The position numbers were made by a program, and so were the translations under genes. A DNA stretch of 64,000 nucleotides from Camelus ferus (taxonomy: Eukaryota): positions 14,510,001 to 14,574,000 of the forward strand of contig NC_045696.1 of the NCBI RefSeq assembly GCF_009834535.1, read 5' to 3'. The notes beneath the pieces were generated by a model that was not told the origin of the DNA, ran no database searches, and was given only the letters and a program-made list of their open reading frames with translations. This document shows positions 1-36,759 of the stretch, piece after piece. Each line of letters starts with the position of its first letter. Within the stretch, counting starts at the first letter, position 1.

Positions 1-494
1 CAATATCACAATGTTTGAAAATAAATTGAGTGTTTTTTTTTCAAACATAAAAAGTCATTGGATATTTATTATTTTATGAACTCACAAAAAAAGGAGAAGA
101 AAACTATAAAGTGGTTTCTCCAGAAATAATTATCAAGTGAATACAGCTGTAATCTTGATAACCTCACAGATTATTTCAAATGTAATTACCTGGAGGAAAA
201 GAACGCTATGTTCTGAAAGCCGGAAGCATGTTGGAAAACTCAGGAAAATATTAAGACCCCAAGGCATGAAACTATGCTTTTTACCCAATATAAAAAGGGT
301 AGAATCTTCGAAATACTTTAAAAAATACATTTCTTGTTACTAATAGCTGTACTGAATTCAGTATGAGAATAAAATGTATTATGTGTCATTGGTTTCAAAC
401 AGTTATGAGCCAATTTGCCCTCTGGTCTTAAAGAAATTAAACAAGATTCAATTTGAATTTGATTGGAACTAGTGGTAAAAATTCAAGGTGATCA

Positions 495-860
495 TATCAG
501 TCAGGACATTTGGGTTTAGTAGCAGAACCCTACTTAATGTGTCTTAGACAAAACCATTAGTTTTTTAAAAAGTTTTTTTTTTTTTTTTAAGAAAGGAAAT
601 ATATTAGGTCACATAATTGAGAAGTCCAGATTTTGGGCTGATTTTTGTCATGGAAGGGTTCAGGGCCTCATCCTCACCCCTATGTTCCCAAAGTAACTGC
701 ATCCAGGGAAAACAAGCACCGCCTTTAGGGCTTCCAGCAAAGAGGTTAAGGTGGTGAAATGCTGCTTTGTGATGTGTTTATCTACTCAGCCATGCCTCAA
801 TTATGAAATCATGGTGACCTAGGCAGGAAGGAGCAGGACCATCCAAACCAGGTGAACTGA
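495..860 (-). mobile_element. Old MaLR LTR (MLT1-type), degraded
   Basis: tcaggacatttggg...gcagaaccctac...aaggaaatatattaggtcacataattgagaagtccag resembles the reverse of late MLT1 (J/K/L-like) LTR ends. Confidence 0.5.
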
Positions 861-880
861 GGATGAAGGCACTGGTTTCT

Positions 881-881
<1 letters not shown>

Positions 882-912
<31 letters not shown>
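882..912 (+). repeat. A31 homopolymer
   Basis: 31 consecutive A. Confidence 0.95.
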
Positions 913-915
<3 letters not shown>

Positions 916-2181
916 GGTATTTCCAAATGATATGAGAAGGGATATTGAACAGACAATAACCTCAGAGATTTCACAGGGAGAAGTACTTCACCTTCTAATT
1001 CAATCAACAATTTCTGTTGCACCACTGGCATTACTCAGTATTCTGAGGCCGTGGACTTTATTAGTTGTTTTTCTAAAATAGAATAACAGTGAACGATTTA
1101 ATATTCCCCATTTGGTAAATTGCATTTTCCTTCAAAACATTCTAGTGTGTTTTAATTGAACAGCCCCAGGAAAAGTGGACTCTTCACTCTGCAGGGAACT
1201 CTTTCTTAGACTCTTTTTTGTTTTCCTTTAAGATTGCTTCATCATTCTCTTCCCTTTTCTCTCTCCATCAACCTATCATTAAGGCTGGGGTAGGGAGCCT
1301 CGCCCCGAGGGATCGCTCCCATGGGAGGTCTCCTGCCTCTGGAGGTGTGGGGCTGGGGCAGCCAGGCAGAGGTCTCGAAGAAGGAAATCATGGACAGGGT
1401 GACTCAGCTCTGCTGAGGCTTGAAGAGAAAGAAAGCTCTTTTGGGTTTCTTTTCTGAGCTAATCTCATTATCAGAGTGGTAAGATTCAAACACCAAGATC
1501 AGATAGATGGGGGCAGGCCCAGGTGAAGGAGCCCAGGGAATGATCTGGTCAACCTCTAAAATATGTGAAATCAGTTGCAGAAGCTCACGCTATGCACTGA
1601 GATAAAAAGCTGACTGCCTGGGCTTTTGGAAACAGCCCTGGTTAGTGATAACATCCATCCTCTGTGTTTCTCTTCTCCCATCACTCCTGTCATCAGAACA
1701 AGCCTGGCTGAGGATTCTGAGATCAGACTTGTCATTTTTGTGTCTCCTTTGATGACACAAAGATGAGTCATAGTGGTCACCTCTATGTGGCTTCCCAAAG
1801 ATAAGAAGATCTTCACGGAAAGAGCTAGAATATACAGGGAAGGCACTGAGATTTGGTTTCTGGGTCACTATGTCCCATGATTATTATTAATAGAACAGAT
1901 ATTCTTAAATTCTTTCTCCACTTGCAGCAGGGAGATACCTAATCATGGAAATGAAGTGTTTTTTAGGTCTTGAGGATTTTCATGCACTTTGCAGAAATTG
2001 TCATGGAAAATAATAATGAAAAACTGAAGCACAATTCAAAAGCCTAATAACTAGACAAGCTATCAGAATTATTGCTGTTATAACAGGTTAAGGGACGATG
2101 TGTTTTAAAAGCTTGGTATTATTTGAAAACAAATAATCAAGACCATGTACTTAAACCACAGTATTGTTATTTAAAAATAAA

Positions 2182-2235
2182 AGGAAGAGAGGAAGGAAGA
2201 AAGGAAAGAAGGAAGGAAGGAAGAAAAGAAAAAAC
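2182..2235 (+). repeat. (GGAA)n-like purine-rich simple repeat
   Basis: ggaaggaagaaaggaaagaaggaaggaaggaag. Confidence 0.8.
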
Positions 2236-2821
2236 AATTATAAAGAGCTTTTTTTAAGTACAGAAAAGTCAGAATATATATTAACTATTCAATTTGCTTT
2301 GTGGCTTCTTGAACAACTTGAAAAGGAACATTTTTCATAGTGAGAAAGAAACTGAGGTAATTAAGAATTAAAATCTAAGGAATGTTTTCAGATATTTGTG
2401 GCAGATTTTAAAAGAATTTTGTTTGTATAATAGTAAGTAATTTAATTATCTCTGCTTATATTACATTCCATTTAAATAAACTAGGCAAGCAACATCTTCG
2501 TTACTGGTACTTAACATATGCATCCTGTTTATGTTTTCACTGGTACTACTTTCTTCGAGTTAAGCGGTATTCCTGGAATTCACACTTTATTTATGATTGA
2601 ATCAGGAAATAATGACTTTGCCTAAATAGGTATAGAATAACATTTGTTAGTCATTGAATCGTTTTCCTCTTTATTTCATGATAGTCTTGTTAGTAGAAAT
2701 AGATGAACACTTGAGCACTAATTACTCATTAGGGTCAGAGTTATTTTTCTAGTATCGTGTACAGCTTTTTGATCATGAAGCTAGTATTCCCACACTTTTT
2801 TTTTTTTTTGGTGTGACAGTT

Positions 2822-2962
2822 ATCATTCTAAATGTTTTAATGTATGAACATGTTTAATCCTCAAGGCAACCTAAGGAGGTAGGTAGTATTATCCACTTTT
2901 TACCAGGAAGATACTGAGCATGAAAAGGTTAAGTAATGGCTGAAGGTCATGCAGCTGAGTAA
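2822..2962 (-). mobile_element. MIR SINE
   Basis: tttaatcctcaaggcaacctaaggaggtaggtagtattatccac...actgagcatgaaaaggttaagtaa...aaggtcatgcagct matches the reverse MIR core. Confidence 0.8.
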
Positions 2963-3966
2963 AATTCCACCACTTTATTTAATATGTTTTATTTTTGAAA
3001 GCTGTTTTGAACGGGTATTAAAAGGATGTTTGAGTCTGCTAAATGTCACTGCAATTTTTTACAGCAGTCTTTGTAATTAATGTGTGTTAAGCAATCATGT
3101 GATGTAAAATATACTAACATTGCTTTTGAAAGATTAACTTTCTAAAAATGAGAAAAATGAGGAACAAAAAATATTAAATATTTTCAAAATGTGTACATAA
3201 ATTGTTTTTTCAAGCTTAGAATTGTGATACCACCATTTAACTGAGAACCCATAATCATTCAGCAGACGTCTATGAGATAGCTCCCTTCTAGCTGATTTTT
3301 GGATAAAGCCTGTGTATCAAGCTATTGTGTATTTTTTTTTTTTGATAAGAGACAATTCCCCCTAATAGATGGAAAAATTAGGTTAAATTCTTTTCCTATT
3401 TTGTCTCTCACTGTCCCTTCTTATTTACATAGTATTTTTTCCTGTTATGAATGCTTCTTTTATGGTATAACTCAAGTAATAAAAAGCTCTTTGGTTGGTT
3501 ATTAAAATGCCCCCATCCCACTATAATTGTCAAGATTTAACTGCTGTGAAGATAGGCTTTCCCCCACTGTCCTTATTTGGACCTGCTATAGACAAGGATG
3601 CTAGCAGTCAGGGTCAGAAACCGAGTGAATGGCTTTGTTCTCTTTTCTTACCTTATGAGTCTACTGGTTTTCTCCATTCCTGATATCAGTGGTTTCTGTC
3701 CCCATATAGGGAGTGAGAAGAGGAGCTAGACGCATAATTTTGGGGACGTGAAAATGGTTGGAGGCTGATCCCTTTTTTTCTCTTGTGGCTCTTTCTTGTC
3801 TTCCACTCCTCACCCTCCAGGGGGGAGACACTCCTTCTCTGGCTCCTCATCTGCTTTTTTTTCTCAGCCTCTGAGCATCTAGCAGCATTTCTGGTTTGTC
3901 TTTATTTCAAGTCTATTTGCCCCTTCAGGCAGCTCTCTTGAGCACATGTGCATGTGTGTATTCAGA

Positions 3967-3980
3967 CACACACACACATA

Positions 3981-4012
<32 letters not shown>
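3967..4012 (+). repeat. (CA)n microsatellite, interrupted
   Basis: Visible CA run. Confidence 0.95.
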
Positions 4013-4014
<2 letters not shown>

Positions 4015-5034
4015 TCAGCATTGACAACTGGGGGTGGACTTCCCTAATCAGCCACTACTCACCTGGTTCATCCATCACCAGCTGTCCTGTCTGACTCTCA
4101 CCCTTTAGAGTTTTTACATAGAGGCTGACATCAGTTGACCCTGTCAACCAATCATAAGAAACACTTATCACGGTCCCTGAGTTGTCCTATTGAGATACTC
4201 TCTTTAATCTTGAGCTAAGGGAGGGTACATCCACTTCTTCCCTTTCTTCTCTCTGAAGTAATCATATTAAAAATATATCTTTTGATTTTCACCAGTCTTG
4301 GGGTTAAAAAATGGCCATGCCCATTCCTTCTTCTGCAGTGGGCAGAACTTGTCAGAGAAAAGTTCTCTCAAAATCTAACTCTCTCAAATAGAAATAGGGA
4401 GGGGCTGGAAATTGCCAACAAGTTTTGGCCAACAGCTTTATAAATTTTGCAGAGAGTCTAGAAAGTCCTTTGGAATGTGATATTGCGTCTTGGTGTTTCA
4501 GCAAAGTGTTTCACCGTCATGCTATTTGCCATGTATATAATATATATAATTTTGGTGGCCAAATATCCTACAGCCCTGGTCTGGCCAGGATTTGAATCGA
4601 GCCCTCACAACCAATCACACTGGTGCTGATATGGCTGAGCGCAATCCCCTCCTCCCCAGTTCACCTTTACATACTGGCCTCAAGTGACCCCCCTCTAGGG
4701 CACACACCTTAGCACCCGTTTCACTGAGAAATGCAGCAAATATAGCAATGGTATTAATTAGCTTTAAGGTAAGTTCATCTTACCTGGGTAAGTAGTTGAG
4801 AAACAGTGGATGAAAAAATCCAACCTTCAGCTCTCATAATACCTTCTGAAATGTAACCATGATGACTAGGTATATAGATACTAACAGGCAAAACTGAGTT
4901 TCCCTTTACAAAATATCATCACTGTGTGTATACCTATGTGTGTGCATGTATGCGTACATTTTTAAAAATGGGGAATGGAAGACACTTAGTCCAACACATG
5001 TAATGTTAGCCAGAATCATCAGACCCTTCTGAGC

Positions 5035-5056
5035 TAGAGCTAGGATCCTAGCTCTA
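5035..5056. repeat. Perfect 22-bp palindrome TAGAGCTAGGATCCTAGCTCTA
   Basis: TAGAGCTAGGA is the exact reverse complement of TCCTAGCTCTA, with no spacer. Confidence 0.95.
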
Positions 5057-5434
5057 ACTCCCTCGCTCCAAGGCAACAACGCCCATTAATTGCTAAGCAT
5101 TCCAGGTGAAGCTCTTTACAGCCGGTTAGAAGCGGCAGCTTGGCTCAGGTAATTCAGACTCTTCTGTTCTCCCTGACTGTTGCTCATTCTTTCTCGCCTC
5201 CACATTCCCTTGTAACTTGGTCTCTTTATCTTCCTCATATGGACATTCTCTCTGTAACACCAAAAACCCTAGGGAAGAGGTGGTTCCCATGAAGAAGTTC
5301 TAGGAAGGAACTATTAATCAGGGCTCTCTAATGAGTACCCAGGGTACTGGGCAGGTAGCATGCCTCTACGTGGACGGGAGATACTCCATAAAGTGTAGGG
5401 TAGGGGAGGAGTTTGCTAATGAAATTGAAGGCAC

Positions 5435-5854
5435 TATGGACGAATTTGCCTGGGTTGCACGACAGAGTACCCCAAACAGGGTAGTTTAAACAACAGAAAT
5501 TTACCGTCTCATGGTTTTAGAGGCCAGAAGTCTGAAATCAAGGTATCAGCAGATTGATTCCTTCTGAGAGTGATGATGGAATGAACTGTTCCAGGCTTCA
5601 TTCCTTGGCTTATAGGATAGTCATCTTCTCCCTGTGCCTCTTCACATTTTTAATCCTCCTTGTGTGTCTCTCTCAACGTTTCCCTTTTTACAAGGACACC
5701 AGTCATACTGGATTAGAGTCCACCCTAATAAGCCTCTTTTAACTTGATTATCTCTGTAAAGATCATAACTTCAAATAAGTTTACGTTCTGAGGTAACAGG
5801 GGTTAGGACTACAACACATCTTTGTGTGAGGGGGACACAATTCAACGCCTCACA
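5435..5854 (-). mobile_element. MaLR solo LTR, MLT1B/C-like
   Basis: aaacaacagaaatttaccgtctcatgg...ggccagaagtctgaaatcaaggt...aaggacaccagtcatactggattagagtccaccc...ggggttaggact...ggggacacaattcaac; near full length. Confidence 0.85.
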
Positions 5855-6530
5855 CACTGTTCCTTAAAAAATGGAGACGGGAACAGAATTAATCCTGAGA
5901 AGACAAACTTCAATGACTATATTCCACTATACACACATTTACTACATGGCAAATATGCAGGTGAAAGCAAGTAAGAAAGTTGTCATCATTCTTCTTTCTC
6001 TTTCTCAAAAATATAGACAAACTTAGATTTTCCTTATATTTGAATTTATTATATATATATATATATGAGCTTTTTATATTTTTATATATCCAGATTATTT
6101 TCAGTCATAAGAAATCCTACTATTTAATGATGTTCTGTGCACCTGTCTCCTGATAATTTTTGTTTCAACCTCAATTCAAATGGATAATTACTTCAATAAA
6201 ATTAATGGGCTTTACTTCACAGAAATCTCACCACACATACTGAATAGTCAAGTTGATATGAGATATTCTTTCCCGCTACCTTCTTAACTATAAAGCCCAG
6301 ATCTTCTTTTTCAATTATAACACATTGAGTTTTCCTTTACCATTAATAGCATGAGCAAAATAAATGACAAGTCATTCATCAAGTAAAACAAACAGCATCC
6401 TTATCTCTATTTTCCCTAAAAGAAAAGAAGATAGAAGGCAATTAAGAGAATTTAGAAACACACACACGTAAAGAGTTTAGAATTTATTTTCCACTAAAAT
6501 AAATTATTGTTTATTCTGAGATTCTGTTGA

Positions 6531-6656
6531 ATTTTTTCTCAGCTCTATTGAGGTATATAATTGACAAAATTGTAAGATATTTAAAGTGTACATTGTGGTG
6601 ATTTGCTATCTATATACATTGTAAAAGGATTCCACTATCTAGTTAATGAACACCTT
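6531..6656 (-). mobile_element. L1MA-type 3' end fragment
   Basis: ctattgaggtatataattgacaaaattgtaagatatttaaagtgtacattgtggtgatttg. Confidence 0.7.
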
Positions 6657-7341
6657 TTTTTGATGTTTGTTTGTTTTTGTTTTTGTTTTTTGAGTAAGAA
6701 ACTCTAACAATAATGGGTTGGCTTAAACTTTAGGATAAGCATATTATATAATTAAATATAATACAAAGTGATTGTTTTTAAATTTAATAGTTGTATGCCC
6801 ACAGAGTTCTGTTGTTGTTGTTGTTGGAAACTGTCTTCCCAAATAATACTCTTCAGAACAAAGTTTCTTCTGGAGCTGATACAAATTATTTGGTGCCTAA
6901 AGATATGTCCCCACAGCATCCTGTGATGGTCAGCTTACTTCCCAGATGTTCACATCATCCCTCATTACACAAAACAGCTCCTAGAAAAGAGCTGTGTCAG
7001 AGATTTGAACAGCAAATATCCAGGCTCTAGCATTTTTTATCAATAGACTAACACAGATTGGAATGGATACTCAAAACTTCTCTTTGTCATCCCATAATCA
7101 CATCATTATCCTGTCTGGGATTAGTCATTGCTAGCCTCAAGATGTATGATAGTCTAATTTAGCAGGCCTCTATTCTTTCATTTTCTGGAATCAGTTTTAT
7201 CGGTTTAACCTGGAAGCATATTACATTGTATGAAGTATAACAGAGGCATAGTCCATCTCCATGGGGAGAACAGAATTAAAGATAGGAGGGTGTCTGCCTC
7301 TGAAATATTTTATTCACTCACTAAAGGTATTAAAAACATAT

Positions 7342-7550
7342 GAGACTAGAATTCACAGACATCTGAGTACCAAACTCCAGCCATAATATTTTCTGGGGTA
7401 TCTCATTTTGGGATAGGACATCTAACGTTTTACAGGCCAGATTACCACTCTGTAAAATGGGAATTATAGTAACTATTCACATTGTGATGGAAAGAATTAT
7501 ACACAATGGCAGATAGATAACTGGCTCATAATAGATTCCTGATAGCTCAT
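7342..7550 (+). mobile_element. MIR SINE, degraded
   Basis: Core motif ctctgtaaaatgggaattatagtaacta. Confidence 0.6.
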
Positions 7551-9540
7551 TTTCTTCCTTTTCATTTGTATGAATAGAAAAAAGAAAAAAAATCATCCTA
7601 ATAGAAAAATCATCTATTAATATGAAAACTCATTAGAGGTGCTTGCATAGATTTCCACTCACTCTGTCATTCTGTAAATGATGTTTTGATTTTCAAGTAC
7701 AATCATAAAATCTTGCACCACTCATAGATATTGTGAAAGGATGGGAAATGGATAAAATGTAGAAGAGTTAACACTCAATTAAGTTCTCTGTTGAAAGAAC
7801 TTAAACTTGGAAGAAATATATTCAGTACATCATAAAATATAGTTTTGCTATGGTTCTATTTATATTAATTACTGATGAAGTGTATAGTCTTGGTCTGAGT
7901 GTCAGTGACATTCTCAATTTAGTATAGAAAAATCAACATAGATTATTGACAAATAATTTGATACATATCATGTATATGTTGTCTTTGAATTTACCATTTA
8001 GTATTTACAATTGAACAACTGTGACATTTATAATGGAAAAATTATAAAATGTGTCTATAGATCTTTATGATCTTAAACAAATTTTAGAAAATTTGAATTA
8101 AAACCACATGTTATTTTAAAGAAATGTTGTTTTAATACTTTCTAAAACATGGAATATCAGATGATAAATAGCCAATATTACTATATAATAATCATTGAGT
8201 CTACATTACTAAATATGTGATTATATTAAATGCATTGCTTTTATACAAATAGATAGTTCCCAGTGGCTTAATAATCTGAACTAGTTTAAAAGAATAAATA
8301 TTTATTTAAAAATATTTTTCCCCTATGCTACTGATCTTGGGGGAAAACTCTTGGAAAACACATTATTAGGAAATGTCTATACAAAAAGTTCCTCACAGTG
8401 AGAATTAAAACACACAGATTTATCTTGACAAATACAATATTCAAGGCATAAAGTGACTTAAAACATTTATTTTGTTATTTAGTATAGAAAGAAATAACTA
8501 GACTAACAGTCATCTTCTTTACTCAGAATAATGTCTACCTGATAACTAAAATTTACAGTCACATAATTTTCCTCTACTTAACATAATTGAAATTGCCAAT
8601 CTCTCATTCTCCTAAAAGTGGGAAAGAACCTGAAAACTGATAAGAACTTCTCAAGAGTCGAAATTAATTCTGTGCTTGTAAAGATGGAGGTATTCTGTAA
8701 AACATGTGCTAACACTCTTTCAGATTTATGTAATGTCTCTGAGACACTAGTGTAATTGATGAGTGAAAAGCAATGAGTAAAATACAGAATTGATTAGATC
8801 GCTAAGTCCATATCAACTATTATAATTCATAACTTAAACTTAGAAAGTAGAAAATTAGTGTGATTGAATTGTTAAAAATCCGTTTCTACATACAGACATG
8901 TTTTTAATAATAGATTCTCTAAATAGCTTACTCCCTCTGGTTTTTAGCTCAAAAAGTGATTAATAATTTGTATAAGTTGCTGTTTACAGCTCAACCCTTG
9001 TGAAGATTTCATGATAACTTACTATACTGGATCAAATTAATGGCTTGTATAACCAAGTGTTTTGTTTCTGAATGATATCAAGGGACATTTAATTAAGATG
9101 GGGAACAAAACTGGCCATGGCACCTATCTCTGAAGAATCTGGTTTATATATTTTTTTCATCCAAAGATGAGTTTGTTCTTTGGCTTACTTTTTCTTAAGC
9201 CAGTTTCATAATTGTGTCAAAATATTTTCCATAACCTTGTGATTTTTCTGTGAAAAACACCTGTGTGTGAACACCTTGCACGTGTGCACCTACCCAGAGA
9301 TGGATGTTCCTTTGTTTACATATTTTTGCCATCTTAAAAATTTAGCAACAGACTAGCATGGGTTTTCCATGACTATCTGATAGTAACTTATGTTTGCTTA
9401 AGTATGTTTTTCAATTATTACACTGAGATGGAGTATTTACTGAAGTTTTCATAAAAACATAAACAACCATAGCTTGTGCCTAACGGATAGCAAAGGCAGT
9501 CCCAAAGGTTAGAAATTATAGTATTCAAAAGTAAATTTGG

Positions 9541-9642
9541 TAACTAGTGACATTGAGCATTTTTTCATGTGCATAATGGCCATTTTTGTGTCTCCATTTT
9601 AGAAGTCCTTGTTTAGGTCTTCTGCCTATTTTTGGATTGGGT

Positions 9643-9680
<38 letters not shown>

Positions 9681-10738
9681 ATTAAGTTGTAGGAGCGGTC
9701 TGGAAATTTAACCTTTGTCAGTCACATCATTTGCAAATATTTTCTCCCCTTCTGTAAGTTGTCATTTTGTTTTACTTATGATTTCCTTTGTTGTGTAAAA
9801 GCTTATAAGTTTAATTAGGTCCCATTTGGTTAATTTTTGCTTTTATTTCTATTGCTTAGGTAGACTCCCCTAGGAGAACATTGTTAAGATTAATTATCAG
9901 AGAAAGGCAAATCAAAACTACAATGAGGTATCACCTCACACTAGTCAGAATGGCCATTATTCAAAAGTCCAAGAATGATAAAAGCTGGAGAGGAAGCGGA
10001 GAAAACAGAACCCTCTTACGCAGCTGGTGGGAATGTAGTTTGGTGCAGTCATTATGGAAAACAGTACGAGATTCCTCAAAAAACTAAAAATAGACTTAAC
10101 CATATGATCCAGCAATCCTACTCCTGGGCATATATCCAGAAGGAACTGTAATTCAAAAAGATACATGCACTCCAATTTTCAGAGCAGCACAGTAGCCAAG
10201 ACATGGAAACAGCCTAAATGTCCATCAACAGCTGACTGGATAAAGAAGTTGTGGTATATTTATACAATGGAATACTACTCAGCCATTAAAAAGAATAAAA
10301 CAATGCCGTTTGCAGCAACATGGATGGATCTGGAGAATGTCATTCTAAGTGAAGTAAGCCAGAAACAGAAAGACAAATACCATATGATATCATTCATATG
10401 TGGAATCTAAAAAAAGAAAAAGGAAGACACTAATGAACTCATCTACAAAACAGAAACAGACCCACAGACATAGTAAATAATCTTATGGTTACTAGGGGAA
10501 GGGGGTAAGAAGGGTTAAATTTGGGAGTTTGAGATTTGCAAATATTAACTACTATAAATATAAAAATAGGTAAAATTCAAATTTCTTCTGTATAGCACAG
10601 GGAAACTATATTCAATATCTTGTAATAACCTTTAATGAAAAAGAATATGAAAATGAATATATGTATGTATATGCATGACTGGAACACTGTGCTGTACAGT
10701 AGAAATTGGCACATTGTACTGACTATACTTCAATAAAA
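9541..10738 (+). mobile_element. 5'-truncated LINE-1 with 5' inversion (9541-9891 antisense; 9891-10738 sense ORF2 C-terminus plus 3' UTR)
   Basis: ORF2 C-terminal peptides IIRERQIKTTMRYHLTLVRMAII and AKTWKQPKCPSTADWIKKLWYIYTMEYYSAIKKN; 3' end acattgtactgactatacttcaataaaa; degenerate TSD aaaagtaaatttgg (9527-9540) / aaaagtgtgaatttgg (10735-10750). Confidence 0.92.
9644..9680 (+). repeat. (GTT)n microsatellite inside the inverted L1 segment
   Basis: About 12 GTT units. Confidence 0.95.
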
Positions 10739-11249
10739 GTGTGAATTTGGGAAAATCAACTACTAAGTGGGTGATTAAGGAATCTTGATTTATGTGCTTC
10801 ATTATTACTCAAGAAGCAGTAAAGGGAAAAGTCTGATGTTAAAATGAACCAATCTGAATGCATCGTCATGAAATACTGAAAACTGAGAGTCAGGGAGAGA
10901 AATCAATAGTGCCCACCAAATCTTTAGAGAGGTTTAGAGAAACTCCAACTTTTTGCTTCCTTTTTCTTTTGCTTCTATAGCAGAAGAGTTCTGCTAAAGA
11001 GAATAAATATATATTAGAGTTCCACTGTTTGATCTTGTTATGAGTTGTAACCATGTGAGTCGTAAAACTCTCTCATGAATTCTGTGTTCCCCGTCTTTTG
11101 ATTAGCATGTAGATTACAGTAGTTCTTTTCTTGTAAGAGAATGTCTTAGGTGGGCATAAGTAACCGAAGCCAACCCCTTGCAATTTTACTCCTTGTAAAT
11201 CAATACATTTGCATTGACTTCTATAAGGTAGTCTCCCATGAATGTTTTT

Positions 11250-11630
11250 GCTGCATCAACTTACTGCTTACAAGTGACAGAATTAACTCTGGTTTACTTC
11301 TGAAGTAAAATTATTTCTTAGAAGCACATGGAGACATGCACAGAAATGATGTGAGGCCTGGGGAACCAGATCATAGAATGGTTACAGTTCAAGGAAATCT
11401 AGATGGGACACTTCTTTTAGACGCTTGCTGGTACCATAGGGCTCTCAGTGCTGCCAGCACTGCTGTTAGGAATACTTTCTTAACTCTGGACTCTATTTCT
11501 CATTCCAGAGTCAAAGTTCTAGACAGGAGCATCTAATTGGCCAAGCCTGTCAGATGGCAAGGAGATAAATGTCTAAAAAGGAGGAAGTCTGTTTGAATGC
11601 TGAGCAGGCCAAAAATGATAGTTGTCCATG
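11250..11630 (-). mobile_element. Old MaLR LTR (MLT1-type), degraded
   Basis: gcttacaagtgacagaattaactctgg at the start and gagcatctaattggccaagcc near the end are typical of late MLT1 in reverse. Confidence 0.45.
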
Positions 11631-12189
11631 AAAACAAGATAGGTCAACTGTAAAGTGATGGCAACCTTCAATTGTCTGCATTTGCATAAAAGACCAGAAA
11701 CCAAATACTTTTCTTATTTAAAAAAATTTATAAAATAAGCACCAAAGGACTCTTACTCATCTCATCTGTTACTTCTTTAAGGTTCAGTTGACTACAGAAA
11801 GGGTAATAAGGACAAAGATTTTCCTTGAGACAGTCCATTTTATTTGCTTGGGTCAAGGGTCAGGGTGGGAAGGGCAGATCCCTTTATGAGAAGAGTATTT
11901 TTTTTTTCACATTTTTTTTATTGAGTGATAGTCATTTTAAAATGTTGTGTCAAACTCTAGTGTAAAGCACAATTTTTCAGTTATACATGAACATACATAT
12001 ATTCATTGTCACATTTTTTTTTTGCTGTGAGCTACCACAAGATCTTGTATATATTTCCCTGTGCTATACAGTATAATCTTGTTTATCTATTCTGCATTTT
12101 AAAATCCCAGTCTGTCCCTTCCCACCCCCCACCCCCTTGGCAACCACAAGTTTGTATTCTATGTCTATGAGTCTGTTTCTGCTTTGTAC

Positions 12190-12232
12190 GTATGTATGTA
12201 TGTATGTATGTATGTATGTATGTATGTATGTA
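12190..12232 (+). repeat. (TATG)n microsatellite in the L1 3' UTR
   Basis: About 10 TATG units. Confidence 0.95.
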
Positions 12233-12239
12233 TTTATTT

Positions 12240-12609
12240 AAGATTCCTCAAATGAGCGATCTCATATGGTATTTTTCTTTCTCTTTCTGGCTTACTTCAC
12301 TTAGAATGACATTCTCTAGGGACATCCATGTTGCTGCAAATGGCATTATGTTGTTGGTTTTTATGGCTGAATAGTATTCCATCATATAAATATACCACAG
12401 CTTCTTTATTCAGTCATCTGCTGATGGACATTTAGGCTGTTTCCATGTCTTGGCTATTGTAAATAGTGCTGCTATGAACATTGGGGTGCAGGTGTCATTT
12501 TGAAGTAGGGTTCCTTCTGGATTTATGCCCAGGAGCGGGATTCCTAGGTCATATGGTAAGTCTATTCCTAGTCTTTTGAGGAATCTCCATACTGTTTTCC
12601 ACAGTGGCT
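12240..12609 (-). pseudogene. L1 ORF2 C-terminal remnant (~120 codons, in-frame stops, no start)
   Basis: Translates to PLWKTVWRFLKRLGIDLPYDLGIPLLGINPEG...CTPMFIAALFTIAKTWKQPKCPSADD*IKKLWYIY. Confidence 0.9.
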
Positions 12610-12750
12610 TTCCTTGCTTCCCTCTCCCACTCTTAATGATTTAGATGTCTTCTTTTACAATTTTGTGTTTATTCTTTTTGTAACTCATGGCAGTTATCTC
12701 CTTTCCAGTTATGAGTTTCTCATTTTTGTAGCATCCTGCTTCTTTTCTAT

Positions 12751-13637
12751 TTAGACTAGACCTGTCAAAATTTCTTTTAGCATGGGTTTAGTGTTGCTAA
12801 ACTCTTTTAGTTTTTGCTTGTCTGTGAAGTTCTTTATCTCTCCTTCTATTCTAAAGGATAGCCTTGCTGGATGGAGTATCCTAGGCTGCATCTTTTTTTC
12901 ATTCAGGATTTTGAATATATCTTGCCACTCTCTACTGGCCTGTAGTATTTGTGTAAAGAAATCAGCTGAGAGCCTTATGGGAGTTCCCTTGTAACTCACT
13001 CTTTGTTTTTCTCTTGCTGCCTTTAGGATCATTTCTTTTTCCTTGACTCTGGCCATCTTGATTATGGGTCTGTTTGGGTTCTTCCTGTTTGGGACCCTCT
13101 GAGACTCCTGTACTTGGATATCTGATTCCTTCTTTTGGTTTGGGAAGTTTTCAGTCATGATTTCTTCAAATACCTTTTCAATCCCCTTTGTTCTTTCTTC
13201 CCCTTCTGGAACCCCTATTATGTGTAGATTGGCATGCTTTATATTATCCCATAGGTCCCTTATATTGTTTTCATTGTTTTTTATTTGTTTTTCTCTCAGC
13301 TGTTCTGATTGGGTGCTTTCTGTTGTCCTGTCTTCTAGGTCACTTATTCGTTCCTCTGCATTATCTAGCCTGTTTTGTGCAGCCTTTAGGTCAGCTCTCA
13401 TCTCAGCAAATAAGTTTACTAATTCTACTTGGTTCTTCTTTATAGTTCTATTTCATTTTTGACATATTTTATATCTCTAAACACTATTTCTTTTAGTTTC
13501 TTCAGTACTTTGATTGCTCATTTTTTGAAATCTTGATCTAGTAGGCCATCAGTGTCTATTTCCTTGATCGTGCTTTCAGGGGATTTCTCTTGATCTTTCA
13601 ATTGGGGGTGGTTCCTCTGCTTCTTCATATTGCTCAT
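12751..13637 (-). pseudogene. ORF1: LINE-1 ORF1p (RNA-binding chaperone), disrupted
   Basis: MSNMKKQRNHPQLKDQEKSPE...; in-frame TGA at 13518-13520 and a 1-nt frameshift near 13445, then an open 216-aa C-terminal part with coiled-coil, RRM (NLHIIGVPEGEE, IMTENFPN) and CTD motifs (ILKAAREK, KGTPIRLSADF, PARLSFRIEGEIKNFTDKQKLKEF). Confidence 0.93.
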
Positions 13638-14835
13638 ATCTCTCTGGCACTGTGGCTTAAGGAGTATTAGTCATCTAGTTCTCCTGGAGACGGTGTGCTC
13701 TTAATGATTTTATTGAGAGGTCTTTGTGTCTTCGCCCCATATCGTGGACTCAACTTGGTATTTCCAGAGGCCCTCTGTTGGCGCCCTTGTCTGTGCTGCT
13801 CCCAGTGGCTGTCGGCTAGCAGATCACACCCCCTCCCATCACCGTGGTCAGGTGCTGCATCCCTGCCAGGAAGGCAGGTGGCCGCCCACCCTTTCCCAGT
13901 GCCAGTCACTCCGCTACTCTATGCAGCTGCCTATTGCACCTTGGGTCAGTGCTCCAAAGGCAAGCTTGTGGAAGACTGCTGAACAGCCCCATCCCTGCTC
14001 TGTGCCAAATCTCAGCTCCTTGTTTTTCTTGGTGGCGTGAGTTCTCTGAGGTGCCAGGGCAGAAAGATCCCATCTGCCTTGGGCTGTAAATAATGCCTAG
14101 GAGGTTGCAGAGCCCCCAGGTGCTGATTCAGGTATCAGCCCCAACCCCACCCAGGTGCTGGTCACAGAAGGAGATGGCGGCTGTGGCTGCGCCCCACCTC
14201 TCTTCTCACTTGAAGTGCCAGTAATGGCGCCATGGGTCTGAGGAGACAAAGGCTATGATGTCCCTCCCTCCAGGGCACACCAGCCGTGTTGCTTTGCTTT
14301 TCTCACAATTTATGAGTGACTGAGGTGGTTCTGCTCCATATCCCCTCCCAGCCACGGTGTGCAGCACCCTGCAGTCCCCTGGGGCTGCCTCAATGCAGCC
14401 GCCCCCATCCTCCACCTGGCTTGGGCGGCCTGTCCCGGCCCCCAGCTGCTGGCTCGCATCTCAGGCTGGGTGTCGTGGGGACACTCTGTGCCCATTTAAC
14501 TCAGTTCTGTTGTTAAAGGGGTGCTCGGGGCAGATCTGAGCCTCGGAGGCTCCCCCTCTGTCCCGCTGACCTCTCTGTTGGAGAGGGGAGACCCAGCAAA
14601 TGAGTGCCAGTCCTCCTTTGTCGCTCTCTCCCTGTGGGATTGGTCCTGCACTGTTTTACTTTTCCTTTTCTCCAACCAGATTTTTGGCATCTTTGTCTTT
14701 CGAAGAGGGCAATGTTCTGTCAGATTTCGGCAGGTGCTCTGGTTGGCAGAGTAGGTCCATAGATGTGAGTTTTGGTGTATTTGTGGGAGAGGGTGAGCTA
14801 CAAGCATCCTTCTACTCTGCCATCTTGCTTCTCTC
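13638..14835 (-). promoter_or_regulatory. L1 5' UTR internal promoter with a YY1-type motif (CAAGATGGC, 14819-14827) at the 5' end
   Basis: GC-rich ~1.2 kb between the ORF1 ATG and the TSD; CAAGATGGC about 9 nt from the element start, as is typical of mammalian L1. Confidence 0.8.
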
Positions 14836-15058
14836 GAGAAGAGTATTTCTCGTACTGAAAATTTATCCTTTAGAACTACTTCTACTTCTTAGATCTACAG
14901 AGGAAGCTGACTCAAATAATTGAATCATGATCACCTCTTTTAAATTAAATATATGCATGGCTTTTGCATCAATGTTCTGATTTAATTAGTCCGAGTTTGT
15001 TTAACCATTCTTCATAGGACATGCTGTTGAAATCAGTATTCCTGATCTTGCCATTCCC

Positions 15059-23390: not shown

Positions 23391-24420
23391 TGACTTTAGA
23401 CAATACTACAAAGCTACAGAAGTCAAAACAATATGGTACTGGCACAAAAACAAACATAGATCGATGTAACACAATAGAAAGCCCAGAAATAAACTCATGC
23501 ATTTATGGTCAATTATTCCATGAAAAAGAAGATGAGAATATACAATAGAGAAAAGACAGTCTCTTCAATGAGTGGTGTTTGGAAATCTGGACAGCTACAT
23601 GTAAAAGAATAAAATTGCAACATCCTGTAACACTATGTACAAAAATGAACTTAAAATGAATTATTGAATGTAAGTCCTGAAACCATAAAACTCCTCGAGA
23701 GAAACATAGGCAGAACACTCTTTGATATAAATGGTAGCAATGTATTTTTGGATCTGTCTCCTAAAGCAAAGGAAATAAAAGCAAAAATAAACAAATGGGA
23801 CCAGGTTAGACTTAAAAGCTTTTGCACAGCATAGTAAACCATCAACAAAACAAAAAAGACAACCTACAGAGTGGGAGGAAATATTTTCAAATGACATGGC
23901 CAATAAGGGGTTAATACCCAGACTATATAAGCAGCTCATACAACTCAACATAAAAAAAAAAGAATAAAAAATAGGCAGAAAACTTGAATAAACATTTTTC
24001 CAAAGAGGACACGCAGATGGCCAAAAAGCACATGAAATGATGCTCAACACTGCTAATCATCAGGGAAATGTAAATCAAAACAACAGTGACATACCACCTC
24101 ACGCCTATTAGAATGGCTAAGCTCAAAAAGAATGCAAATAAAAAATGTTGGCAAGGATGTGGAGAAAAGGGGACACTGTGCATTGTTGGTGGGAATGTAA
24201 ATTGGTGCAGCTACTGTGGAAAACAGTATGGTGGTTTCTCAAAAAAGTGAAAATAGAACTCCCATATGACCCAGCAGTTCCACTCCTGGATATTTATCTG
24301 AAAGAAACAAAAAAGCTAATTTGGAAAGACACATGCACCCTAATGTTTATAGCAGCACTATTTACAATAGCCAAGATATGGAAGCAAAATGTCCATTAAC
24401 GGATAAAGAAGATGTGAGAT

Positions 24421-24482
<62 letters not shown>

Positions 24483-24510
24483 GAATACTACTCAGCCATA
24501 AAAAGAAGGA
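23391..24510 (+). mobile_element. LINE-1 ORF2 3' region, lacking 3' UTR and poly(A)
   Basis: tactacaaagctacag...tggtactggcacaaaaac...; ORF-track peptide [17 protein letters not shown]...PYDPAVPLL...CTLMFIAALFTIAKIWKQ; ends at ctcagccataaaaagaagga. Confidence 0.92.
24421..24477 (+). repeat. (CA)n microsatellite inside L1
   Basis: Visible CA run. Confidence 0.95.
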
Positions 24511-25560
24511 TTATCTCTTCAGCTGTTGATGAACCCTTGGGCTACTTACAGACTGGAGATATTATGAATAAAGATGCTAGAAGCACTTTTGTTCAGGTGT
24601 TTTGTTGGATATATTTTTATTTCTCTTAAGTAAATGCCTCGGAATGGTTATCCTGAGTCATACAGTACGTGTATTTTTAACTTTATTAAAAACTGTCCAA
24701 CTGTTTTCCAAAGAGTGTACCATTTTTCACTTCCAACAGAAATACATAAAATGTCTAGTTGCTAAACATGCTCTCCAACAGAAAGAACTTATGATCTATT
24801 GACTTATGACTGATCTTTTAAAACTTTTAGCAGTTCCACTCATTGTATGTGGTATCTCTCTGAGAAAATTTTTAAAATTCAACTTTATTGAGGTACAATT
24901 TTTATACAATAAAATGCATTGACTGCGGTTTGATAAGTTTCTCTGAATGCACATATCAGTGTGATAATCACAATCAAGAAACAGAGTGTTTCTGTCTCCT
25001 ACAAAGTTCCTTCATGCTTTTTTGTAGTCAACTTTCTCCACTCAACCCTGGCAACCACTGATCTGATTTCTGACAGTGGAGATTGGTTTTGCCTGTTCTA
25101 GATGTCATATACATGGAATCATAAAATGTATTCTTTTTTGTGTGTGTATCTGACTCCTTTCGCTCAGCATAATGCATTTGAGGTTTATCTATGTCATTTT
25201 GAGTATCAGTAATCCATTGCTTTTTATTTCCAGCTAGGATTCATGGCATGCTTATACACAATTTCTTTTCCATAGTAGTTGTTCCATTTTATATTTTCAA
25301 CAGCAATATATGAGAGTCCCCATTGCTCCAGAATCTCTGTAACACTTGAGTTTGTTAATTTTTTTTAGCCTTTTTAGTGTTTGTAAAGTCATTATCTCAC
25401 TATAATTGTAATTTCTGTCTTCCTAATGATACTGTGCCATCTTACTTCTATTTGTCACTGCATATTTTCTTCTGTGAAATATCTGTTCAATTTTTTGCCT
25501 GATTTTTGAACTGCTTGCTCTTATTAATCTATAAGAGTTCTATATAAATTCTATGTTTAA
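24511..25560 (-). mobile_element. Two tandem old L1M (L1MB/MC-like) 3' fragments
   Basis: ctgttgatgaac...tgaataaagatgct...actgttttccaaagagtgtaccatt; second copy starts aactttattgaggtacaatt at ~24881. Confidence 0.75.
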
Positions 25561-35297: not shown

Positions 35298-35564
35298 TTC
35301 TTTTTCTTTCTTTTTTTTTTTTTTTTTTTCTCCAGCATTAAGATCTTCACTCTTTTTTTTTTTTAACATTTTTTATTGATTTATAATCATTTTACAATGT
35401 TGTGTCAAATTCCAGTGTTCAGCACAATTTTTTCAGTCATTCATGGACATATACACACTCATTGTCACATTTTTTTCTCTGTGAGTTATCATAACATTTT
35501 GTGTATATTTCCCTGTGCTATACAGTGTAATCTTGTTTATCTATTCTACAATTTTGAAATCCCA
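35298..35564 (-). mobile_element. Short 5'-truncated L1 3' end (related to the 11901 element) with a second poly(A) 23 nt downstream
   Basis: 35365-35564 aligns by eye with 11910-12109 (tcattttacaatgttgtgtcaaa...tttccctgtgctatacag...aaatccca); T-tracts at 35353-35364 and 35298-35329. Confidence 0.88.
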
Positions 35565-36759
35565 TTCTACCATATGTGTGTATGTAGATCCCTTAGCTAG
35601 CTGGAACCAGTTTTAACAGACTTCAGAATTGTATGTATTCAAAGCTTCTTAAGTTAAACTAATTTGATGAGAAGAGTTTAACATCAGGATTGAGGATGAT
35701 CTCCTGAAGCTTCATCCATAGGAAATCTGGATTGTGGAGATTACTTTCCTATGGCTATTTCCCTAGGGGTAGATGCCTGAATAAAGGGGGAAAAAATCAG
35801 TGTCCTTTATTTCAACACTTATAATTCTAAACTGCAAGTTATAGAATGTGCTTAGGGAAAATTTCAGAAACATTATTAATTATACACCAGCTTTAATAAA
35901 TGAATATCAATTATCATTTTATTTTCCCTCTGCTTAATATGTCTTAGAGTAGAGTTTCTTTAGAACATATTGAAAGTGACCTTTCCATGACTTATACAAC
36001 AAACTTGATTATTCATCTAATTGGTGGGAGTGAGATTATGGAAGTAATTTACTCTCTTCAATTGCATAAGTAAATCCACTGATGCGAAAGAAGACACATT
36101 ATTTAACTAAAATGGTCTTTTGAAATGGAGGAAACTTTTATCTAATTACATACAATTGGATTTTATAAAGGTTTAAATTAGCCTTGACTACCACTTATCT
36201 GGGCAACAGTTTATCCTATATTCTGAGTCACTGAAGACTGCTGAGAAGCAAAAATGAAAGTTTTATCTTGCCAAAATTAGCAAAATAATGCTGTAAGATG
36301 CTCTTAGATAAGGTCAGGATAAAGTTCAAACTAACCTCATTTTAGCAATATCCTTCGGCAGTGGGAAGAAAGGGAGTTAACAAAGATTTCCTTAGGAGAC
36401 TCCGGGCTGACCTATCAGGACCTGAAGTCGACAGAGATTTGGAGATATAAAATATGCCATGGCTTCTATAACAGGATAAATAGTAGTATTTTCCTATACC
36501 ATGACTGACAGAATAATTTACTTGAATTTAAGTCTTAGAAAGCTCCATCTGCATCTTATATTGTCAAGAATTCTCAGTAAGATTCTAAACTATTTCACAA
36601 ACTGCTGAAAACTGGAAAAGATCCAGGAGAAGCTCTTCTGCCACTGGAATTGTTCCTGTTGTCTGATTTGACGAGCCTCAACTATTGTTAAAAAAACACG
36701 TACACTTGCCCTACAGGAAAAGTTCCCTAAGCATAGAATATTAAAAATTGTTCCTAGAA

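Follow-up and report, generated by a model that had tools for sequence, protein, structure and literature searches.

The described systems closest to the locus reported here are all forms of the LINE-1 (L1) retrotransposon. HAL1 elements (half-L1; Smit 1999; Bao and Jurka 2010) encode only ORF1p and, in the available portions of the literature, are credited with several origins in mammals (PMC5753468, PMC13756887, PMC5786205, PMC4859970, PMC4161310); like the element described below, they keep the 5′ end, ORF1 and a polyadenylated 3′ end and lack the enzyme domains of ORF2. SpIREs (Larson et al. 2018), as excerpted, also have both ends present and an internal loss and are dead on arrival; they are 5′ UTR and 5′ UTR/ORF1 splices, whereas our element has instead lost ORF2. 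With the mammalian LINE-1 of the camelid lineage the element shares its 5′ UTR, ORF1 domains, spacer, ORF2 end, 3′ UTR, A tail and 13-base repeats, but it is without all but 122 ORF2 codons and its ORF1 is broken at three places. HAL1s are multi-copy families: many copies at different target sites have the shortened structure in common, and the consensus of such a family has an intact ORF1 that is under selection. The present element, in contrast, is known from one copy, and its tail consists of ordinary ORF2 sequence, undecayed and of the same L1 lineage; it does resemble a HAL1 in that ORF1 is retained and the ORF2 enzyme domains are absent.

Results

Structure and borders of the element

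The first-pass annotation had described an L1 of about 2.9 kb bounded by an exact 13-bp target-site duplication, and both points are borne out. On the minus strand of the window (the whole stretch of DNA analysed, 64,000 nt) a LINE-1 of 2,961 bases runs from 14848 to 11888 between exact 13-base direct repeats. The 5′-end copy of the target-site duplication (14836-14848) is identical to the 3′-end copy (11888-11900); the 13-mer occurs just twice in the window, both times at the element's ends, and is the sole repeat of at least 8 bases linking the two border regions. Pairs of 13-mers lying 2-4 kb apart do arise by chance in the window (4 overlapping, 3 independent, counting 13-mers with all four bases). 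A pair falling exactly on both L1 ends is not chance, given about 2,250 position pairs × 4^-13. Target repeats of full-length L1s peak at 14-16 bases in the available text of one survey (PMC2912911), so that the 13 bases seen here lie near the peak. Together with an A tail of 7 bases, the exact repeat makes up the hallmarks of LINE-1 insertion found in this element.

All of the following features lie on the minus strand. The 5′ UTR (13638-14835; 1,198 bases, 56% GC) is delimited by its place between the repeat and the start of ORF1, and a YY1-like motif at its start suggests that it is complete. ORF1 (12751-13637) is a pseudogene with trimerisation, RRM and C-terminal domains; PF17489, PF02994 and PF17490 all score above the Pfam cut-off, with matches in one of the six frames scanned, and it aligns to two protein records (P0001, P0018). 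After the ORF1 stop, 141 bases from the start of the inter-ORF spacer are kept (12610-12750), unlike the ORF2 of two other copies, and are followed directly by the final 122 codons of ORF2 (12242-12609; 88% identity to residues 65-186 of P0258), close to the roughly 140 bp and 120 codons first estimated. The 3′ UTR (11908-12241) contains a 4-base microsatellite (12185-12237) and a polyadenylation signal (11922-11917). It is 85% like a short 5′-truncated L1 3′ end at 35355-35568, around which no target repeat of at least 7 bases was found; because that copy also has the stretch that separates the polyadenylation signal from the tail, this stretch belongs to the family. The remnant A tail (11901-11907) runs into the repeat. 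The annotated intact ends with poly(A) thus hold as to the presence of 3′ UTR and tail; as to the tail's condition, just 7 bases stand outside the repeat.

The junction and the ORF2 remnant

The break lies at 12610/12609, where spacer is joined to the ORF2 end; bases 12609-12608 agree with the ORF2 side and could be spacer as well, which places the junction within 12608-12610. ORF2 likeness, measured against two older L1 copies of the window, sets in abruptly at 12609: of the first 20 bases, 17 and 19 match, and upstream of it each of five bins has only 1-7 matches in 20. No endonuclease or reverse-transcriptase sequence is left, in agreement with the first reading, and the element therefore lacks what defines an autonomous LINE-1. 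A full ORF2 has about 1,275 codons, of which 122 are kept, so at least 3.5 kb is gone. Stops fall in the ORF2 tail at 12412 and 12250, and the frame offers no start codon in the stretch from the nearest preceding stop to the junction.

The nearest named proteins to the element are the Camelus dromedarius L1 ORF2 fragments KAB1282936.1 and KAB1266627.1 (88% and 91%); over 65 and 58 residues the ORF2 tail is 91% identical to them. The window is read as probably camelid. Among the 120 proteins most like the junction frame, the anchor motif is present in 107 and at least 6 residues upstream of it in 23. The spacer peptide is found in none of these 23, most of which are about 70-79% identical and so come from other lineages. 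All three of the four closest relatives that reach upstream of the break run on there as normal ORF2 (P0139, P0140, P0258). Such protein checks of the junction are biased, as gene callers would seldom read across it. One of these records, P0140 (UniRef A0A8C3H5B0), carries a painted turtle label; its identity is 90% with a dromedary L1 ORF2 fragment and 92% with the element's tail. It is probably a contaminated or mislabelled entry.

Two adjacent insertions, each with its own repeats, were considered as a source of the junction and rejected: the junction and the 3′ end have no repeat of at least 7 bases in common, and the junction and the 5′ start share only one match of 8 bases (12613-12620 at the spacer end, 14824-14831 at the 5′ UTR start; purine-rich on the sense strand), which was judged to be chance.

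State of decay

ORF1 had been annotated as complete. This is right for its extent and its three domains, but the frame is not intact. A stop codon interrupts it at 13520-13518, and a single-base frameshift follows near 13445. Near 13065, 15 bases are missing in frame; this removes five codons of the RRM and is a second, small internal deletion in the same copy. With ORF1 in this state and ORF2 reduced to its end, the element yields no working ORF1p or ORF2p, and it is not a source element today.

The best three ORF1 relatives, among the best 120 matches, have 82-85% identity, and pig-named proteins 54-66%. Against the majority of its close relatives ORF1 differs at 17 of 252 agreed columns. 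In simulation this corresponds to neutral change of about 3% at the DNA level, which is an upper bound because part of the differences could be traits of the subfamily. The CpG observed/expected ratio is 0.27 in the 5′ UTR and 0.06 in ORF1. Because a 13-base repeat pair has a probability of 0.45 of remaining exact through 3% decay, the perfect target-site repeat gives no proof of youth. That this copy is young is not borne out, given the three ORF1 lesions, the private divergence of about 3%, a CpG ratio of 0.27 in a 5′ UTR of 56% GC, and the worn A tail.

The ORF2 remnant has decayed to a similar degree. Measured against the majority of four close relatives, it differs at 3 of 65 codons, and one of these differences recurs in a relative; with the frame-ending stop included the count is 4/66 and the contrast with ORF1 is weaker. 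For 3/65 against 17/252, Fisher's test gives p = 0.78, the relatives used being different records for each region, and a tail decaying at twice the rate of ORF1 would show three or fewer differences with p = 0.02 (stop not counted). ORF1 and the ORF2 remnant thus seem to have left selection together. Equal decay fits a single copy dying at once and also fits a short burst from a fresh master.

Origin of the deletion

We consider the element to be an old, dead L1 fossil, most likely internally deleted as a one-off. This option, already raised in the first-pass annotation, agrees with everything measured, including the equal decay of ORF1 and ORF2 remnant. It is also favoured by the second deletion within ORF1 and, weakly, by the protein relatives of the tail, none of which shows the spacer peptide. 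A single L1 copy would have been inserted by target-primed reverse transcription, to which the 13-base repeats and the A tail point; its middle, some 3.5 kb or more, would have been lost once, at this locus, and neutral decay would then have taken the copy to about 3% divergence. The loss may quite possibly have followed insertion, through end-joining repair with little or no shared sequence. That it happened during insertion, by the reverse transcriptase jumping to the spacer once it was about 700 bases along the RNA, strikes us as rather doubtful. These gradings, like that given for splicing below, are matters of judgement and not of computation; structure, lesions and equal decay are observed, and the single-copy status and the route and date of the deletion are inferred. 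In the available part of a long-read study of 3,598 tumour L1 insertions, no listed class has a large non-inverted internal deletion (81 insertions are unclassified), and internal deletions appear only at inversion joints and are short, with a median of 14.5 bases (10.1101/2024.08.27.596794). These tumour data suggest that loss at insertion is rare, and we therefore favour deletion after insertion over a template jump. Against a one-off event stands the position of the break, which spares the whole of ORF1 and removes both enzyme domains, as would be seen in an ORF1-only family.

Such a family is the main competing explanation. The element would be one decayed member of a HAL1-like family whose master, deleted but still with a promoter, ORF1 and 3′ end, gave RNA that the ORF2p of full-length L1s copied in trans, in a burst dated at about 3% divergence; we hold this to be unlikely. 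In its favour, both ends and the target-site repeats are intact, the shape is that of the ORF1-present bipartite non-autonomous LINEs, a class that in the available text includes HAL1 (PMC5786205), and more than one HAL1 origin in mammals is on record (PMC5753468, as excerpted). The lesions of one old copy, furthermore, do not reveal the state of its master. In a long-lived ORF1-only lineage we would expect the ORF2 remnant to have drifted further than ORF1, an expectation of our own making. The excess decay that this implies for a HAL1 is not seen in the counts above, which speaks against a long-lived lineage but not against a short burst, for which the comparison has low power. No second junction is present in the 64,000-nt window, and no camel-named protein is found among the best 120 ORF1 matches. 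In metagenome contigs, a collection that showed no camelid L1, the junction 20-mer has four matches, all four of them chance 20-21-mers without surrounding L1. In viral contigs, which likewise returned no camelid L1 DNA, neither the junction 20-mer nor a 23-mer from the ORF2 side has a match and no ORF1 alignment is obtained, and the same limit applies to plasmid and phage records, where the element has no match. These negatives therefore count for very little.

In a search of sequencing runs, 18 of the 23 listed (3 organisms, 6 studies) contain 0.66-0.69 of the 418 words from 11000-15050 of the window. Flanks make up 27% of that interval, and values of 0.42-0.66 could arise from an empty locus plus family relatives. 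With only about 3 of the sampled words crossing the junction, the search neither counts copies nor proves the locus. The literature on camelid repeats and HAL1, in the parts available, yields no camelid HAL1. No such family is named in the available text of PMC8605555, on camel transposable elements, where ORF1 has 0 occurrences, or in that of PMC6726744, where Repbase L1-2_Vpa is listed along with a single match, of 73 bases, to a bat HAL1; PMC13192797, in excerpt, describes older L1s as gathering internal deletions. We regard as unlikely an undescribed camelid HAL1-like family founded by one clean deletion, from the spacer to the last 122 ORF2 codons, with a short burst before the ORF2 remnant could decay. 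Were it so, the origin of an ORF1-only parasite from its parent L1 could be followed at single-base resolution. A multi-copy junction would mean another independent half-L1 origin, caught early, and would bear on whether retention of ORF1 helps a non-autonomous L1 RNA to borrow ORF2p. As a one-off fossil, the reading we prefer, the element is ordinary L1 debris and at most a presence/absence marker in camelids.

Two further explanations were considered. Short-read assemblies often mis-join young L1s, and the junction could in principle come from the collapse of a long repeat during assembly. The two sides of the break, however, have no long repeat in common: the likeness of the spacer end to the lost ORF2 is matched or beaten by 14/722 and 215/722 control stretches. 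The copy is also some 3% diverged and hence largely unique, and the window is without any N, all of which makes a collapse barely credible. Reverse transcription of a spliced L1 RNA, its donor lying in the spacer and its acceptor close to the end of ORF2, would be in keeping with the break itself, which falls at the AG of an ORF2 glutamine codon (relatives read ...LVQPLWK) and so has the form of a 3′ splice site; the AG is present in both older copies in the window. Spliced L1 insertions are known, but those described in the available text involve the 5′ UTR and ORF1 (PMC5860796), and in the two older copies the 20 bases before the AG are purine-rich, without a pyrimidine tract. A SpIRE-like origin is consequently very improbable.

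Other L1 sequence

The window holds further L1 pieces, and no host protein-coding exon was recognised by eye in the open-frame lists for 1-9900 and 15000-64000. An older L1 3′ end lies on the plus strand at 9553-10738 and is 74% like the element's tail. Its part at 9553-9865 matches a copy at 23.5-24.4 kb in reverse and its part at 9891-10253 matches it forward, a 5′-inverted (twin-primed) pattern; no target repeat of at least 8 bases was found around it. An old L1 ORF2 fragment occupies 23509-24713 on the plus strand, interrupted at 24421-24477 by an (AC) microsatellite, and a weak ORF2-like piece is seen on the minus strand at 24630-24713.

Outside the window, alignment of ORF1 to prokaryote genomes returned just one distant locus (L005, 265-1044, 45% identity), where a bacterial genome record includes a contig of 1,046 bases with an L1 ORF1 of mammalian type. 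Another mammal-type L1 ORF1 is present in a bacterial metagenome bin (P0035). Both are probably host contamination.
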